DNA of 64,000 bases from Micromonosporaceae bacterium (GCA_036378155.1 DASUXA010000040.1:25800-89799), one strand, 5' to 3'; positions 58,427 to 62,734 are shown, counted from the stretch's first letter. Translations and numbers: made by a program. The notes: a model not told the origin generated them from the sequence alone.

Positions 58427-58773
58427 TGAGCAGCCTCTGCTTCGGACGTACGGAGCGGTGTCGAGCCTTGCGTCGAGCGCGCGTCGACCACCGCCGTGGT
58501 GATCGCCGACCGGGTCATCCTGGCATGCGCGCGCATCGACGACCAGCACTGGTGTCGCGGCGCTGGCGGCGGTACGTTCTCCGGTTGCCGTGAGCGACGG
58601 CGATCCCGACGACGCTGCTCCCGCCGTGCTCGGGTACCGGCGCCGTCACCTTCAACCCGAAGCCGGCGAGCAGCACGTCGTAACCAGGCGACCGTGAAGG
58701 TCAGCTACGCCGGGCAGCCCTGACCCGACGACCGACCTGCGGCAACCCGGCACCTACGACGCGGACTGTCACA

Positions 58774-60096
58774 TCAGCGGGCGTGCGCGGGCGAGCGGGT
58801 CGCGGCGGCGGCGCGGACGAATTCGGCGCGGGGATGCTGCAGTTCGGTGAGCGACACGACGTCGTGCGGGAAGACCGCGTCGACCGCCCAGTCCGCCGCC
58901 ACCCGCACCTGCCGGCTGACCGTCGGCAACTGCCACCAGTGGTACGTCCGGTGCATCAGCCACGCCGGCAACCCGCACGCCTTGAACTGGTAGATCTGGG
59001 CGGTGCCCTGGAACCGGCCCAGGCTGGCGACCGACCCGAGGTACCGGTGCCGGTAGGTGCGCAACCGGTGCCCGCGCACCTCGGCGAGCAGGTTGTCCGC
59101 CAGCCGGCGAGCCTGGCGCATCGCGTGCTGGGCGGTCGGGCCGACCAGCGCGTCCGGGTTGTCGCTGGTGAGGTCCGGTACCGCCGCGCAGTCCCCCGCG
59201 GTCCACGCCGCCGGGGTGTCGACGACCCGCAGGTACGCGTCGGCGAGCAACCGACCCCGGCTGTCGCGCGGCAGGTCGGTCTCCGCCAGCATCGGGTTCG
59301 GTCGTACCCCGGCGGTCCAGATCAGGGTGTCGGCGTCGAACGACTCCCCCGGGTCCAGTTCCACGTGACCGTCGACGCAGGAGGTGACGCGGGTGCGCAG
59401 GCGTACGTCGACGCCGCGCGCGGCGAGCAGGTCGACGGTGTACCGGGCGAGGTCCGCGCCGACCTCGGGCATGATCCGCTCGGTCGCCTCGACCAGCACC
59501 CACCTGAGGTCCGTCGGTTCCAGCTCGCCGAACAGGTCGACCACCCGGCGGCTCATGTCGGACAGCTCGCCGAGCGCCTCGATGCCGGCATACCCGCCGC
59601 CGACCACGACGAAGGTCAGCGCGCGGCGTCGGGCGTGCGGGTTCGTGGTACCGGCGGCGAACGAGAGCCGTTCGAGGACGTGGTCGCGCAGGTACACCGC
59701 CTCGCCGAGGGACCGGAAGCTGATGCCGACCTCGGCGAGCCCCGGGATCGGCAGGGTACGGGCGACCGATCCGGGGCTGACGACCACGTGGTCGTAGCTG
59801 ATCTCCCGGTACTCGTCGCCGGCGAGCCGTACCGTCGCCCGGCGCGCGGCATGACTGATCCCGACCACCTCGCCACCGATGATCTGCGCGTGCGGCAGCA
59901 CCCGGCGCAGCGGTACCGCCACGTGCCGGGGCTCCACGTTCCCGGCCGCCGTCTCGGCGAGCAGCGGCTGGTAGGTCATGTGCGTGCGGGGATCGACCAG
60001 CACCACGTCGAGTTCCCCCGGCCGCATCCGGCGGTACAGCCGCAGCGCCGTGTACAGCCCGACGTATCCCCCGCCGATGATCAGTACCCGTGGCAT
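58774..60096 (-). CDS. ndh: type II NADH dehydrogenase (NDH-2)
   Basis: Blocks VLIIGGGYVGLY, FVVVGGGYAGIE and WTAGDCA. Confidence 0.9.
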   Translation of the reverse strand: MPRVLIIGGGYVGLYTALRLYRRMRPGELDVVLVDPRTHMTYQPLLAETAAGNVEPRHVAVPLRRVLPHAQIIGGEVVGISHAARRATVRLAGDEYREISYDHVVVSPGSVARTLPIPGLAEVGISFRSLGEAVYLRDHVLERLSFAAGTTNPHARRRALTFVVVGGGYAGIEALGELSDMSRRVVDLFGELEPTDLRWVLVEATERIMPEVGADLARYTVDLLAARGVDVRLRTRVTSCVDGHVELDPGESFDADTLIWTAGVRPNPMLAETDLPRDSRGRLLADAYLRVVDTPAAWTAGDCAAVPDLTSDNPDALVGPTAQHAMRQARRLADNLLAEVRGHRLRTYRHRYLGSVASLGRFQGTAQIYQFKACGLPAWLMHRTYHWWQLPTVSRQVRVAADWAVDAVFPHDVVSLTELQHPRAEFVRAAAATRSPAHAR

Positions 60097-60208
60097 CGGC
60101 TCGCCCTACCCGCGAACGGGACGCGGAAACCTGACGCGACCAGGCATGCGGCGCGGGGCTCACGGGTACCGCCGGAGTGTGCGCCCAGCGGAACCGACCC
60201 GCCGAGCC

Positions 60209-60260
60209 GGGCCCACGCCGGGCGCGCCGAAAGCGGGCCCACCTCGGGCGCGCCGAACGT
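60209..60260 (+). repeat. two 26-bp direct repeats (22/26 identical) upstream of a small ORF
   Basis: GGGCCCACGCCGGGCGCGCCGAAAGC and GGGCCCACCTCGGGCGCGCCGAACGT. Confidence 0.8.
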
Positions 60261-60281
60261 CAGTCAGGGGAGGCAGCGGCG

Positions 60282-60497
60282 ATGACCGACAGCAGCGGCG
60301 AGCAGCAACCGGAGCGGACCGACGGGTCGCGCGAGCCGGAGCCCGAGGTGCGGGTACGCACCGGGGCCGACCAGCCGTGGGATCCGGAGGACCTGACCGT
60401 GGCGAAGGGACAGGACCCGACGCCCGGCAACGTCGAGCGCAGCCGGCGCGAACTCGACGAGGAAGGGCCGTCCGCGATCGAGCGGACCGTGCCCTGA
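60282..60497 (+). CDS. small acidic hypothetical protein (71 aa)
   Basis: ATG 60282 lies 8 nt after GGGGAGG. The composition is charged and looks disordered, so coding is not certain. Confidence 0.5.
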   Translation: MTDSSGEQQPERTDGSREPEPEVRVRTGADQPWDPEDLTVAKGQDPTPGNVERSRRELDEEGPSAIERTVP

Positions 60498-60536
60498 CCG
60501 GCCACCGTCGAGCGGCGCGGTACCGGTCGGCGGCGG

Positions 60537-61523
60537 TCAGCTGAGCGCGGGGTACAGCGCCGCGGCGAACACGAGGTAGAGCAGCCCGGCGAGGGACAGC
60601 CGACGGACCGTCAACCGGCCGCGGCGCAGCAGCAGCCACAGGTACCCGATGGACGCCATGGTGACCAGCCCCGAGATCACCAGGACGGTGTCGAACCGCC
60701 ACGGGGTGAACAGCAGACCCAGCCCGCTCGGTACGGTCGCCTGGATCATCATCGCGCCCGACACGTTCGCCAGCGCCAACCTGGTCTTGCCCTGGCGCAC
60801 CCAGATGATCGCGTTCATCGTCTCGGGCAGTTCGGTCGCGATCGGGGACAGCAGCAGCGCGGTGACCGCGGCGGGCAGCCCCAGCATCGGGCCGATGGCG
60901 TCCAACTGGCGGACGAACAGTTGCGACGCCAGGAAGATCACCGCGAGGGTACCGAGGGTCTGCGCCACCACCGCCCAGCCGGCGGGTTGGGCGCGACGAC
61001 GCTGCAGCAGCAGCGGTTCGAGGTCCTCCTGCTCACCGGGGTCGCCGCCGCCGCGCAGCTCGCGCCAGAAGTACACCCCGTACACCGCGAAGAACACCAG
61101 CCCGAGCCAGGGTTTGACGGCGAACGCGACCAGCCCGAGGGCGACCTTGACGACGAACACCGCCATGAACCAGGACTGGTCGCGGGCGAGTTTGCGGGTG
61201 TCGCCGAGTTCCGCGGCGCCGGTGCGCCGACGCGCCAGCAGCATCCAGCCGACCACGCCGTACGCGATCGTGGCGAGCACCAGCGGTCCGCCCATGGCGG
61301 CGCCGACGCCGAGGTCCTTCTCGGACGGCGAGGAGCCGAACACCACGGCGACGAAGGTCACGACGCTCTCCGGCAGCGCGGTGCCGAACGCGGCGAGGAT
61401 GGTACCGACCGCGAGCGGCCCGACGTTGAGCCGCCGTCCGAGCCACTCCACCGCGTTGACGAACCACTCGCACGAGAAGTAGATGGCGACAGCCGCCACG
61501 ATCAACAGGATGACGTGAGTCAC
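60537..61523 (-). CDS. CaCA-family (sodium/calcium exchanger-type) cation antiporter
   Basis: Started at GTG 61523, 7 nt after GGAGGG. The two alpha-repeat signatures are GTALPE and ATELPE. About 10 TM. Confidence 0.85.
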   Translation of the reverse strand: MTHVILLIVAAVAIYFSCEWFVNAVEWLGRRLNVGPLAVGTILAAFGTALPESVVTFVAVVFGSSPSEKDLGVGAAMGGPLVLATIAYGVVGWMLLARRRTGAAELGDTRKLARDQSWFMAVFVVKVALGLVAFAVKPWLGLVFFAVYGVYFWRELRGGGDPGEQEDLEPLLLQRRRAQPAGWAVVAQTLGTLAVIFLASQLFVRQLDAIGPMLGLPAAVTALLLSPIATELPETMNAIIWVRQGKTRLALANVSGAMMIQATVPSGLGLLFTPWRFDTVLVISGLVTMASIGYLWLLLRRGRLTVRRLSLAGLLYLVFAAALYPALS

Positions 61524-61698
61524 TCGGGTCCCTCCGCGCCGCGGGTCGAGGCGCGGAGGGGACCTCGACCGCGGCGCATGTAGCGCCGACACATGGTCGA
61601 AGGTCTCGTCCGCCCACCATCGCGGCGGGCCCGGCCACCGGGAGCGCGAGCTCCAGCATGTCGACGACCGGCGGGAGGACTACTCCCCTTCAGCGACC
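61524..61698 (-). ncRNA. candidate yybP-ykoY-type (Mn2+) riboswitch plus SD-sequestering expression platform
   Basis: The minus-strand RNA reads GGUCGCUGAAGGGGAGUAGUCC...GGACGAGACCUUCGACC (plus-strand coordinates 61698 down to 61595). It carries the conserved GGGGAGUAG and AGACC elements flanked by complementary GAAGG/CCUUC. Downstream there is an 11-bp hairpin, CCCUCCGCGCC / GGCGCGGAGGG, whose 3' arm contains the SD. Confidence 0.5.
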
Positions 61699-61766
61699 AA
61701 CACTGTACGCGACGCCGCTGCCGGGCTGTCACCCCCGCACGGGCGACATGCGGCGTCGGTCACGCA

Positions 61767-61809
61767 CCCGCGGCCGAGCGAGACCCCCCGATCAAGGCTC
61801 GGCCGCGGG
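61767..61809. other. 13-bp perfect stem / 17-nt loop hairpin of unknown role
   Basis: CCCGCGGCCGAGC-N17-GCTCGGCCGCGGG, in the 476-nt divergent spacer. Confidence 0.4.
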
Positions 61810-61999
61810 TACGGCGGGCGCGGCATAGCCGAACCGACGCGGGCCATCGGGTACCCGGTGCCGAGGCGCGCCAAACGTGAGATGGGTACGCGTCGGATGC
61901 GTCAGCCGGGGCGCAGGGGGTAAACGCCGATCGACGGACCGGGCAGACGACGCCGTGCCGCGGTAGTGTGCCGGGACCAGGCGAGACGCTGGATGGCTG

Positions 62000-62734
62000 A
62001 TGAACGAGATCCACTGTCGGGTCGAGACCACGCTTCCGGTCGCGGTGGTGCGACTGGAGGGGGTACTCGGACTGGACAGCGCGTCCACGGTTCGTACGGC
62101 GCTGCTCAAGCGCCTCGCCGAACACCCGGACGCGTTGATCGTCGACCTGTCCCGACTGACGGTCGCCGACGAGTCCGCGTTGTCGGTGTTCGTCGCCGTG
62201 GCGCGACAGGCGGCGATCTGGCCCGGCATCGCGATGGCGTTGTGCGGGGTACCGGAACGGTTCGCCGCGATCGCGTCGCGTCTGGTACCGGTCTGCGACG
62301 ACCCTGGGCAGGCGCGCGACGTCCTGCGCCGCGTCCCGGTCCCGCTGCAGCGGGACCGGCGGCTGCTGCCGGTGACCGGGTCGGCGCGGCGCGCCCGCGA
62401 CCTGGCGACCGAGGCATGTCTGGACTGGGGGCTGTCCGACCTGGTGATCCCGAGTTGCGTGGTGGCCGGTGAACTGGTCGCCAACGCCGTCCAGCACGCC
62501 GGCACGCCGATGACGCTCAGTTTCCGCCGACTGCCCCGGTACCTGCACATCGCGGTGCGCGACGGCTCGGACCGTCCGGCGCTGCGCTGCGAGACGCACC
62601 CACTGGCACTGGGCGGCCGGGGGCTGATGATCGTCGACGCGACGTCGCGATGCTGGGGGTGCTCGCCGGCGACCGGCGGCAAGGTGGTCTGGGCGACGCT
62701 GGACGTCGGCGATCCGTGGCACGGCGACCGGTAA
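62000..62734 (+). CDS. STAS (anti-sigma antagonist-like) / HATPase (RsbW-type anti-sigma kinase-like) fusion protein
   Basis: The N-terminal VAVVRLEGVLGLDSASTVRTALL...IVDLSRLTVADESALSVFV fits STAS. The C-terminal VAGELVANAVQHA...GGRGLMIVDA fits HATPase_c_2. Confidence 0.8.
   Translation: MNEIHCRVETTLPVAVVRLEGVLGLDSASTVRTALLKRLAEHPDALIVDLSRLTVADESALSVFVAVARQAAIWPGIAMALCGVPERFAAIASRLVPVCDDPGQARDVLRRVPVPLQRDRRLLPVTGSARRARDLATEACLDWGLSDLVIPSCVVAGELVANAVQHAGTPMTLSFRRLPRYLHIAVRDGSDRPALRCETHPLALGGRGLMIVDATSRCWGCSPATGGKVVWATLDVGDPWHGDR

Follow-up and report, generated by a model that had tools for sequence, protein, structure and literature searches.

A 64,000-nucleotide stretch of DNA from a Micromonosporaceae bacterium (GCA_036378155.1 DASUXA010000040.1:25800-89799), hereafter the window, carries on its minus strand a gene for a transporter of the CaCA family (60537-61523), preceded by a leader in which a manganese-responsive riboswitch had been suspected. 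This raises the question as to whether the leader belongs to the yybP-ykoY class of riboswitches and, if so, how it would control its gene and which cation the transporter would export. The account that best explains the locus as a whole, and that is likely to be correct, is that of a three-way-junction manganese riboswitch working through the competition of two RNA strands, A and B, which would turn on the translation of a CaCA Mn2+ exporter.

The CaCA gene encodes a protein of 328 amino acids (Pfam Na_Ca_ex, PF01699, E 1.3e-31) with two Na_Ca_ex repeats, whose alpha-repeat motifs GTALPES and ATELPET conform to the class motif G(T/S)xLPE. Its GTG start codon is at 61523 (GUG, 61523-61521), one base away from the position 61524 given in an earlier note on this DNA; 63 of 64 orthologues begin 13 codons ahead of an IY(F/L)(S/A)CEW motif, in agreement with a start at 61523. 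The protein is a distant match to NCX_Mj and reaches 88 bits against TIGR00367, the calcium/sodium antiporter equivalog (YrbG-type), whose cut-off is 179.65; as it falls below that cut-off, it represents a divergent subfamily whose substrate assignment is a prediction. The gene upstream of the leader, coding for a STAS/HATPase_c_2 protein (62000-62734), is on the plus strand and diverges from the CaCA gene, so that 61524-61999 constitutes a divergent intergenic spacer. The same spacer holds a perfect hairpin of 12-13 bp, CCGCGGCCGAGC...GCUCGGCCGCGG (61767-61809), located ~60-100 nt upstream of the riboswitch promoter and appearing in Rfam as a weak MIR9677 look-alike. Past the CaCA gene, within 58769-60702, both strands hold long open reading frames (464, 500, 180 and 188 amino acids), none of which gave a match in Pfam.

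When relatives were searched at the DNA level, the matches spanned exactly the aptamer (query positions 30-127). For 11 relatives (alignment A1), RNAalifold predicts a structure in which P1.1, an internal loop and P1.2 lead to a junction with P3.1 (holding a 7-nt asymmetric loop), P3.2 and P4; 17 of its 33 pairs carry compensatory changes. The covariance model derived from A1, here called R1, recovers the element in 111 of the 151 genomes that make up a sample of the same order. Two larger alignments were fitted to R1, and their counts therefore lean toward the R1 structure: A2, with 30 sequences of relatives, has 96.5% of its cells paired (35-46% when slid by 1-3 columns) and compensatory changes in 21 of 33 pairs, and A3, with 67 sequences from upstream of CaCA orthologues, gathered separately yet model-aligned, has 94.5% of its cells paired (36-52% when slid by 1-3 columns) and compensatory changes in 19 of 33. 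None of the shuffles of A2 matched the observed values, and the RNAalifold prediction on A1 was made independently of R1. The elements supported by covariation are P1.1, L1, P1.2, P3.1, L3, P3.2 and P4, with compensatory changes in all five helices; a covariation-supported P1/L1 in orthologous leaders, the check named in the earlier note, is found in A3.

Based on this conservation and covariation, as well as on its alignment to the Rfam model RF00080, the segment 61692-61598 of the minus strand is almost certainly a yybP-ykoY-type (manganese-type) riboswitch aptamer, on the strand and in the position, directly upstream of the CaCA gene, where the earlier note had placed it; the strings quoted there are all present on the minus strand within 61530-61698. 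The aptamer opens with the 5' strand of P1.1, UGAAGG (61687-61692), which pairs with 61603-61598 and has 99% of its cells paired in the 30 and in the 67 homologues alike. Next comes the 5' side of L1, GGAGUA (61681-61686), invariant in the alignments and part of a GGGGAGUAG that aligns to the identical RF00080 consensus, and then the 5' strand of P1.2, GUCC (61677-61680), which pairs with GGAC (61611-61608) and whose second pair alternates between U-A and C-G (31 vs 28 in A3). Across the junction, the 3' strand of P1.2, GGAC (61608-61611), is supported by covariation in A2 and A3 and runs into the 3' side of L1, GAGA (61604-61607), contained in a CGAGACC that is invariant in A1 and A2. The L1 hallmark of the class is therefore present as GGGGAGUAG at 61688-61680 and (C)GAGACC at 61608-61602, invariant in 11, 30 and 67 homologues and flanked by helices, P1.1 and P1.2, with 99-100% of their cells paired.

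The second hallmark, the P3/L3 leg UCGACAUGCUGG, was absent from the earlier note. The 5' strand of P3.1, CCGGUCGUCG (61662-61671), pairs with its 3' strand, CGGUGGCCGG (61631-61640); this helix has 96-97% of its cells paired and compensatory changes in 5-6 of its 9 pairs. L3 is the asymmetric loop ACAUGCU (61655-61661), which aligns to L3 of RF00080 with high posterior probability and lies in a region, CGACAYRCUG, that is almost invariant among homologues. In the yybP-ykoY family L3, with the consensus ACAUACU, carries a Mn-coordinating adenosine. The leg is capped by the P3.2 hairpin GGAGC-UCGC-GCUCC (61641-61654; 6 of 7 pairs compensatory in homologues), so that P3.1 and P3.2 covary on either side of L3, and it is followed by the P4 hairpin GCCCGCC-GCGAU-GGUGGGC (61612-61630; 5 of 7 pairs compensatory, 87-96% of cells paired). 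An 11-bp inner helix pairing GUCCUCCCGCC with GGUGGGCGGAC, proposed earlier, was rejected: it includes a U-C mismatch, and in 13-22 of the 30 homologues its four innermost pairs are broken. Only its outer 4 bp hold, as P1.2, and its GGUGGGC is the 3' arm of the covarying P4 hairpin.

The four-way junction of P1 to P4 is not found here, as P2 is absent: the RF00080 alignment deletes it, a 5-nt junction strand, UCCCG (61672-61676), takes its place, and neither the 30 nor the 67 homologues show a conserved hairpin at this position. Without P2, the element corresponds to the three-way-junction form known from E. coli alx, with P1.1-L1-P1.2 as one leg, P3.1-L3-P3.2 as the other and P4 completing the junction. 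In L056, a relative of the same order, the P2 hairpin is kept; its score is 34.5 bits against RF00080 and 45 bits against R1, and it thereby bridges the three-way and four-way forms.

A scan of the leader for the sigma-70 promoter consensus found nothing, and an actinomycete-style TANNNT box was used in place of that consensus. The predicted -10 box is TACAGT (61702-61707, minus strand); 36 of 39 homologous leaders have a single TANNNT at a distance of 16-22 nt ahead of GGGGAGUA, and this fixed spacing would place the 5' end of the riboswitch RNA just before P1. Judging from the sequence, the RNA would start ~6-8 nt past TACAGT, only a few nucleotides before P1.

The element lies in the 5' leader of a gene for a metal-transport membrane protein, here of the CaCA family, a setting characteristic of the class, whose genes encode TerC, MntP, GDT1/UPF0016, P-type ATPase or CaCA proteins, and its relatives are found in similar company. 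Of the 39 leaders inspected, most have the aptamer ahead of GDT1/UPF0016 genes (identity confirmed with Pfam GDT1) and 8 have it ahead of CaCA genes; UPF0016 genes have been reported under yybP-ykoY riboswitches in 328 of 333 strains (PMC7380456). In the sample of the order, the aptamer is present at 10 of the 14 loci of CaCA orthologues and missing from four, even with filters off. Across Actinomycetes, 65 of 80 CaCA orthologues taken from a species-level genome collection (64-77% identity) are preceded by it on the same strand, at a distance of 45-111 nt from the start, and 15 are not; the bearers include Streptomyces, Actinoallomurus, Sphaerisporangium, Dactylosporangium, Kibdelosporangium, Pseudonocardiaceae and Rhodococcus rhodnii, among others.

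Two weaker aptamers occur elsewhere in the genome of the window, at contig C7:36606-36719 on the minus strand (L053:1501-1614) and at C90:7977-8109 on the plus strand (L054:1501-1633). They score 44 and 37 bits with R1, RF00080 does not match them even at E ≤ 10, and each stands ahead of a TerC gene (PF03741, E ~1e-53); their L3 sequences are CCGCCAGUACGG and CGUCAGCACGG, that of the window being CGACAUGCUGG. In a Streptomyces sp. (L104:109-215, minus) and in Sphaerisporangium perillae (L081:43-151, minus), the CaCA riboswitch has just upstream of it, on the opposite strand, a further aptamer of this type, a layout suggestive of a spacer shared by two Mn-riboswitch genes that are transcribed divergently.

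Downstream of the aptamer, the minus strand runs through a series of complementary segments toward the start codon. Strand A, CCUUCGACC (61595-61603), consists of the 3' strand of P1.1 plus 3 nt and is the switching strand, able to pair with the 5' strand of P1.1 or with strand B, GGUCGAGG (61563-61570), its complement and hence an anti-P1 element. Between A and B stands a spacer hairpin, CGGCGC-UACAU-GCGCCG (61572-61588), present in every predicted fold and matched by a hairpin at the same position in homologous leaders. Strand C, the anti-SD CCCUCCGCGCC (61550-61560), pairs in every predicted fold with strand D, GGCGCGGAGGG (61530-61540), at -24 to -26 kcal/mol; D contains the Shine-Dalgarno sequence (SD) GGAGG, whose core ends 6 nt ahead of the GUG. 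A further segment, C' (CCUCGACC, 61544-61551), resembles A and may serve as a partner for B once the latter is freed.

The earlier note had claimed that a downstream GGUCGAGG competes for the 3' strand of P1, and this competition is well borne out by comparison: 28 of 28 leaders contain a complement of A, it covaries with A, and A:B of at least 7 bp forms in the minimum free energy (MFE) structure of 60 of 62 CaCA leaders. The two strands change together outside the core constrained by the aptamer (CCUUCGGCUG/AGCCGAGG, CCUUCGAUCC/GGAUCGAGG, CCUUCGGCCG/GGCCGAGG). In a crude, anchor-based covariation table, which picked the wrong CGRRG in some leaders and is clean at position 7 only, that position is A-U in 40, G-C in 17 and G-U in 5 cases, a result reached by none of 2000 permutations. 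The A:B duplex, at -11.6 kcal/mol, is stronger than P1.1 (-6.1 kcal/mol), and the unconstrained MFE structure always has A paired with B. These observations are in line with a competition between a P1 stabilised by ligand and an anti-P1 strand, and A:B is very likely the switching helix.

From this competition, the following sequence of events can be proposed. In the absence of ligand, A (CCUUCGACC) would be captured by B (GGUCGAGG) while C pairs with D, and translation would be off. Upon binding of Mn2+, the docking of L1 onto L3 would lock P1 and B would stay free; the freed B would then pair with C' (CCUCGACC) and hold the anti-SD in an 11-nt hairpin loop while the SD emerges, switching translation on. 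The ON logic put forward earlier, as suits a metal exporter, agrees with the comparative data and also with a published case, a CaCA exporter of manganese governed by the same riboswitch class (PMC8546581). As to the release of the SD, the earlier description is right in that B:C' only loops out the anti-SD, but the equilibrium fold keeps the SD paired: the B:C' hairpin of the proposed ON state amounts to -12.6 to -14.8 kcal/mol, against -24.3 to -26.3 kcal/mol for the C:D (anti-SD:SD) helix, and with the aptamer closed the platform reaches -28.3 kcal/mol in the ON fold and -49.9 kcal/mol in the equilibrium fold, so that the SD-paired fold is favoured by 21.6 kcal/mol. When the aptamer is forced closed in the window leader, the probability of the SD being unpaired falls from 0.20 to 0.00 and the SD helix is even extended; across 8 CaCA leaders treated in the same way, SD accessibility rises in 3 only and drops in the window. 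Thermodynamic ON/OFF modelling was accordingly dropped as support for SD release, given that accessibility rises in only 3 of the 8 leaders.

Since the SD is paired at equilibrium with the aptamer closed, the ON state of the window leader has to be a co-transcriptional kinetic trap. B:C' is the MFE structure of the platform prefix before D is transcribed, and the sole argument for the trap is a direct-path (findpath) barrier of ~20 kcal/mol, a heuristic value that ignores pseudoknots. Relatives can be read for signs of a relay from B to the SD: with the aptamer closed, B pairs downstream in 23 of 23 scorable leaders, and nucleotides that are SD-paired in one state and B-paired in the other number 102 in 27 leaders, where shuffles lead one to expect 22. 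The relay score exceeds expectation in 19 of these 27, the window's own score being at chance (1 vs 1.25). In the MFE structure the SD is mostly paired in 28 of 62 CaCA leaders and in 23 of 28 related leaders. No intrinsic terminator-like hairpin with a U tract was found in a scan of the leader, and without such a site translational ON control is favoured; SD release as the output may be held with about even confidence. An unlikely reading joins two points, namely that the anti-SD, which in most relatives is captured by direct pairing, is here only looped out (GGUCGAGG/CCUCGACC, 11-nt loop) in a purely kinetic trap working against an OFF bias of ~21 kcal/mol, and that the actinomycete three-way-junction subclass, with its CaCA and GDT1 partners, may be tuned to Ca2+ in addition to Mn2+.

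The main rival to translational ON control retains the same aptamer and the same A:B competition and shifts the regulated step to transcription elongation, through attenuation that is Rho-dependent or U-tract-independent. As long as no ligand is bound, Rho could load on the exposed C-rich tract that follows B, UCCCCUCCGCGCCUCGACCCGC; in the bound state, the freed, G-rich B would mask this tract. Such control would account for the failure of thermodynamics to predict any SD release in the window leader, it fits the C-rich character of the segment 3' of B both here and in many relatives, and without Mn the CaCA riboswitch of B. pertussis does give a transcript that ends early, at ~200 nt (PMC8546581). 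Against it stand the anti-SD:SD hairpin directly before the start codon, with the SD mostly paired in 23 of 28 related leaders, and the capture by B of the SD-pairing nucleotides in relatives, well beyond expectation; together with the lack of a terminator-like hairpin with a U tract in the scan, this makes attenuation improbable as the output, and translational ON control remains the preferred reading.

The identity of the ligand bears directly on the substrate of the transporter. The CaCA protein most likely exports Mn2+, and such export has direct precedent in BP3410 of B. pertussis (PMC8546581), the sole tested CaCA protein under a yybP-ykoY riboswitch, which exports Mn. The same fold might instead sense Ca2+, alone or together with Mn2+, in the actinomycete subclass, the CaCA protein then being a Ca2+ exporter, and it is true that the protein falls within the Ca2+/cation antiporter superfamily and that GDT1/UPF0016, the commonest partner of the aptamer, is annotated by Pfam as comprising divalent cation/proton antiporters. 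Yet L1 and L3 retain the family consensus, the TerC and GDT1 partners form an established Mn regulon (PMC7380456) and, in S. pneumoniae in vivo, Ca2+ induces more weakly than Mn2+; set beside the B. pertussis precedent, these points make a Ca2+ sensor very improbable and argue for Mn2+ as ligand and exported ion.

Some of the usual indicators carry little information for this element. The GGGGAGTAG 9-mer occurs once in the window where 0.25 occurrences are expected, and 24 of 100 shuffles contain at least one match; it is therefore not significant alone, as the earlier note had cautioned. Folded by itself, the aptamer adopts exactly the consensus structure as its MFE (-47 kcal/mol), with a folding energy no better than that of shuffles (z-score -0.05) and uninformative in this GC-rich background, so that fold stability is no evidence for the aptamer. 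The scan with RF00080 (Rfam release 15), which the earlier note had named as a check, gave a mixed answer. On the one hand, RF00080 is the best Rfam match at the leader and the sole one with E below 1 (E 0.0027 in 4 kb, 7e-4 for the whole genome), its alignment matching GGGGAGUAG, P3.1, L3 (ACAUGCU) and P4 with P2 deleted; on the other hand, the score of 22.3 bits is below the gathering cut-off of 45. The 177 positions of the model take in P2 and an extended 3' tail, and the 5' strand of P1 has no partner in it. At E ≤ 0.01 it picks up the subclass in 7 of the 151 genomes sampled; among 14 control genomes it exceeds its cut-off in just 2, and in Lactococcus lactis, whose yoaB is a published member of the class (PMC10197570), it does not reach E 0.01. 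Given this poor recall on relatives and controls, the sub-threshold score reflects the sensitivity of the model and not the RNA. The sole RF00080 match over the gathering score in the 151 genomes lies on a 1059-bp contig (L055; G094 contig C149), which at 38% GC and 1 kb within a high-GC assembly is probably contaminating low-GC DNA, and the use of RF00080 as a bridge across the order was dropped on this account. The weakest alternative, that a GC-rich leader with GGGGAGUAG and foldable helices resembles the class by chance and senses no ligand, could draw on the 9-mer expectation, the z-score and the sub-threshold Rfam score, but it is of negligible probability and effectively already refuted by the covariation counts over all five helices, an artefact of model fitting being argued against by the independent RNAalifold prediction, and by the fact that 111 of 151 genomes retain the element and 65 of 80 orthologues are preceded by it, at a fixed position between a conserved -10 box and Mn-related transporter genes.

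Publications already cover the riboswitch class, the three-way junction as one of its forms and its pairing with CaCA genes, and the present element does not change what is known of riboswitches. For the transporters, it predicts Mn2+ efflux, induced at high Mn2+, in a divergent subfamily of "calcium/sodium antiporters" widespread in Actinomycetes. For annotation, it exposes a gap: the RF00080 model as used systematically misses the actinomycete subclass; of the 151 genomes from the order, Rfam release 15 recovers it in 7 and the clade-specific model R1 in 111.

Among known systems, the closest in architecture is the E. coli alx aptamer, a three-way junction with a short loop in place of P2; predicted alx-like three-way-junction architectures are spread over several families (bioRxiv 10.64898/2026.02.18.706685). 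As in alx, the window element carries L1 and L3 on two docking legs and replaces P2 by a short single-stranded junction segment, and the translational ON control of a metal-export membrane protein by alx resembles the ON control proposed here. By comparison with alx, however, the window L3, ACAUGCU, follows the general family consensus ACAUACU rather than the L3 specific to alx, a CaCA gene lies downstream instead of TerC, the platform is a different relay of strands A, B, C and D, and nothing in the element suggests pH sensing.

With regard to the downstream gene, the nearest counterpart is BprK, the leader of BP3410 in B. pertussis, where a yybP-ykoY element precedes a calcium:cation antiporter (Capek et al. 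2021, PMC8546581) and the functional BP3410 protein lowers cellular Mn about five-fold (PMC8546581). Both leaders place the same riboswitch class ahead of a CaCA-superfamily gene, with a promoter -10 box just upstream of the aptamer. They differ in that BprK matches Rfam at E 8.5e-15 while the window element is sub-threshold, and in that BprK appears to act through premature transcript ending, unlike the mechanism proposed for the window.

For the output, the E. coli mntP riboswitch offers a parallel: according to PMC10197570, Mn2+ binding disfavors the stem that sequesters the ribosome-binding site, a translational ON logic that would be shared with the window. Unlike the window element, mntP keeps P2 and with it the four-way junction, and its gene encodes MntP, a LysE-type protein, not CaCA. 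The actinomycete GDT1/UPF0016 leaders share with the window essentially the same aptamer subtype, the spacing of the -10 box, the spacer hairpin and the GGGUCGAGG anti-P1 element; while in most of them B pairs with the anti-SD directly, in the window B is predicted to pair with the flanking A-like CCUCGACC, leaving the anti-SD looped out.
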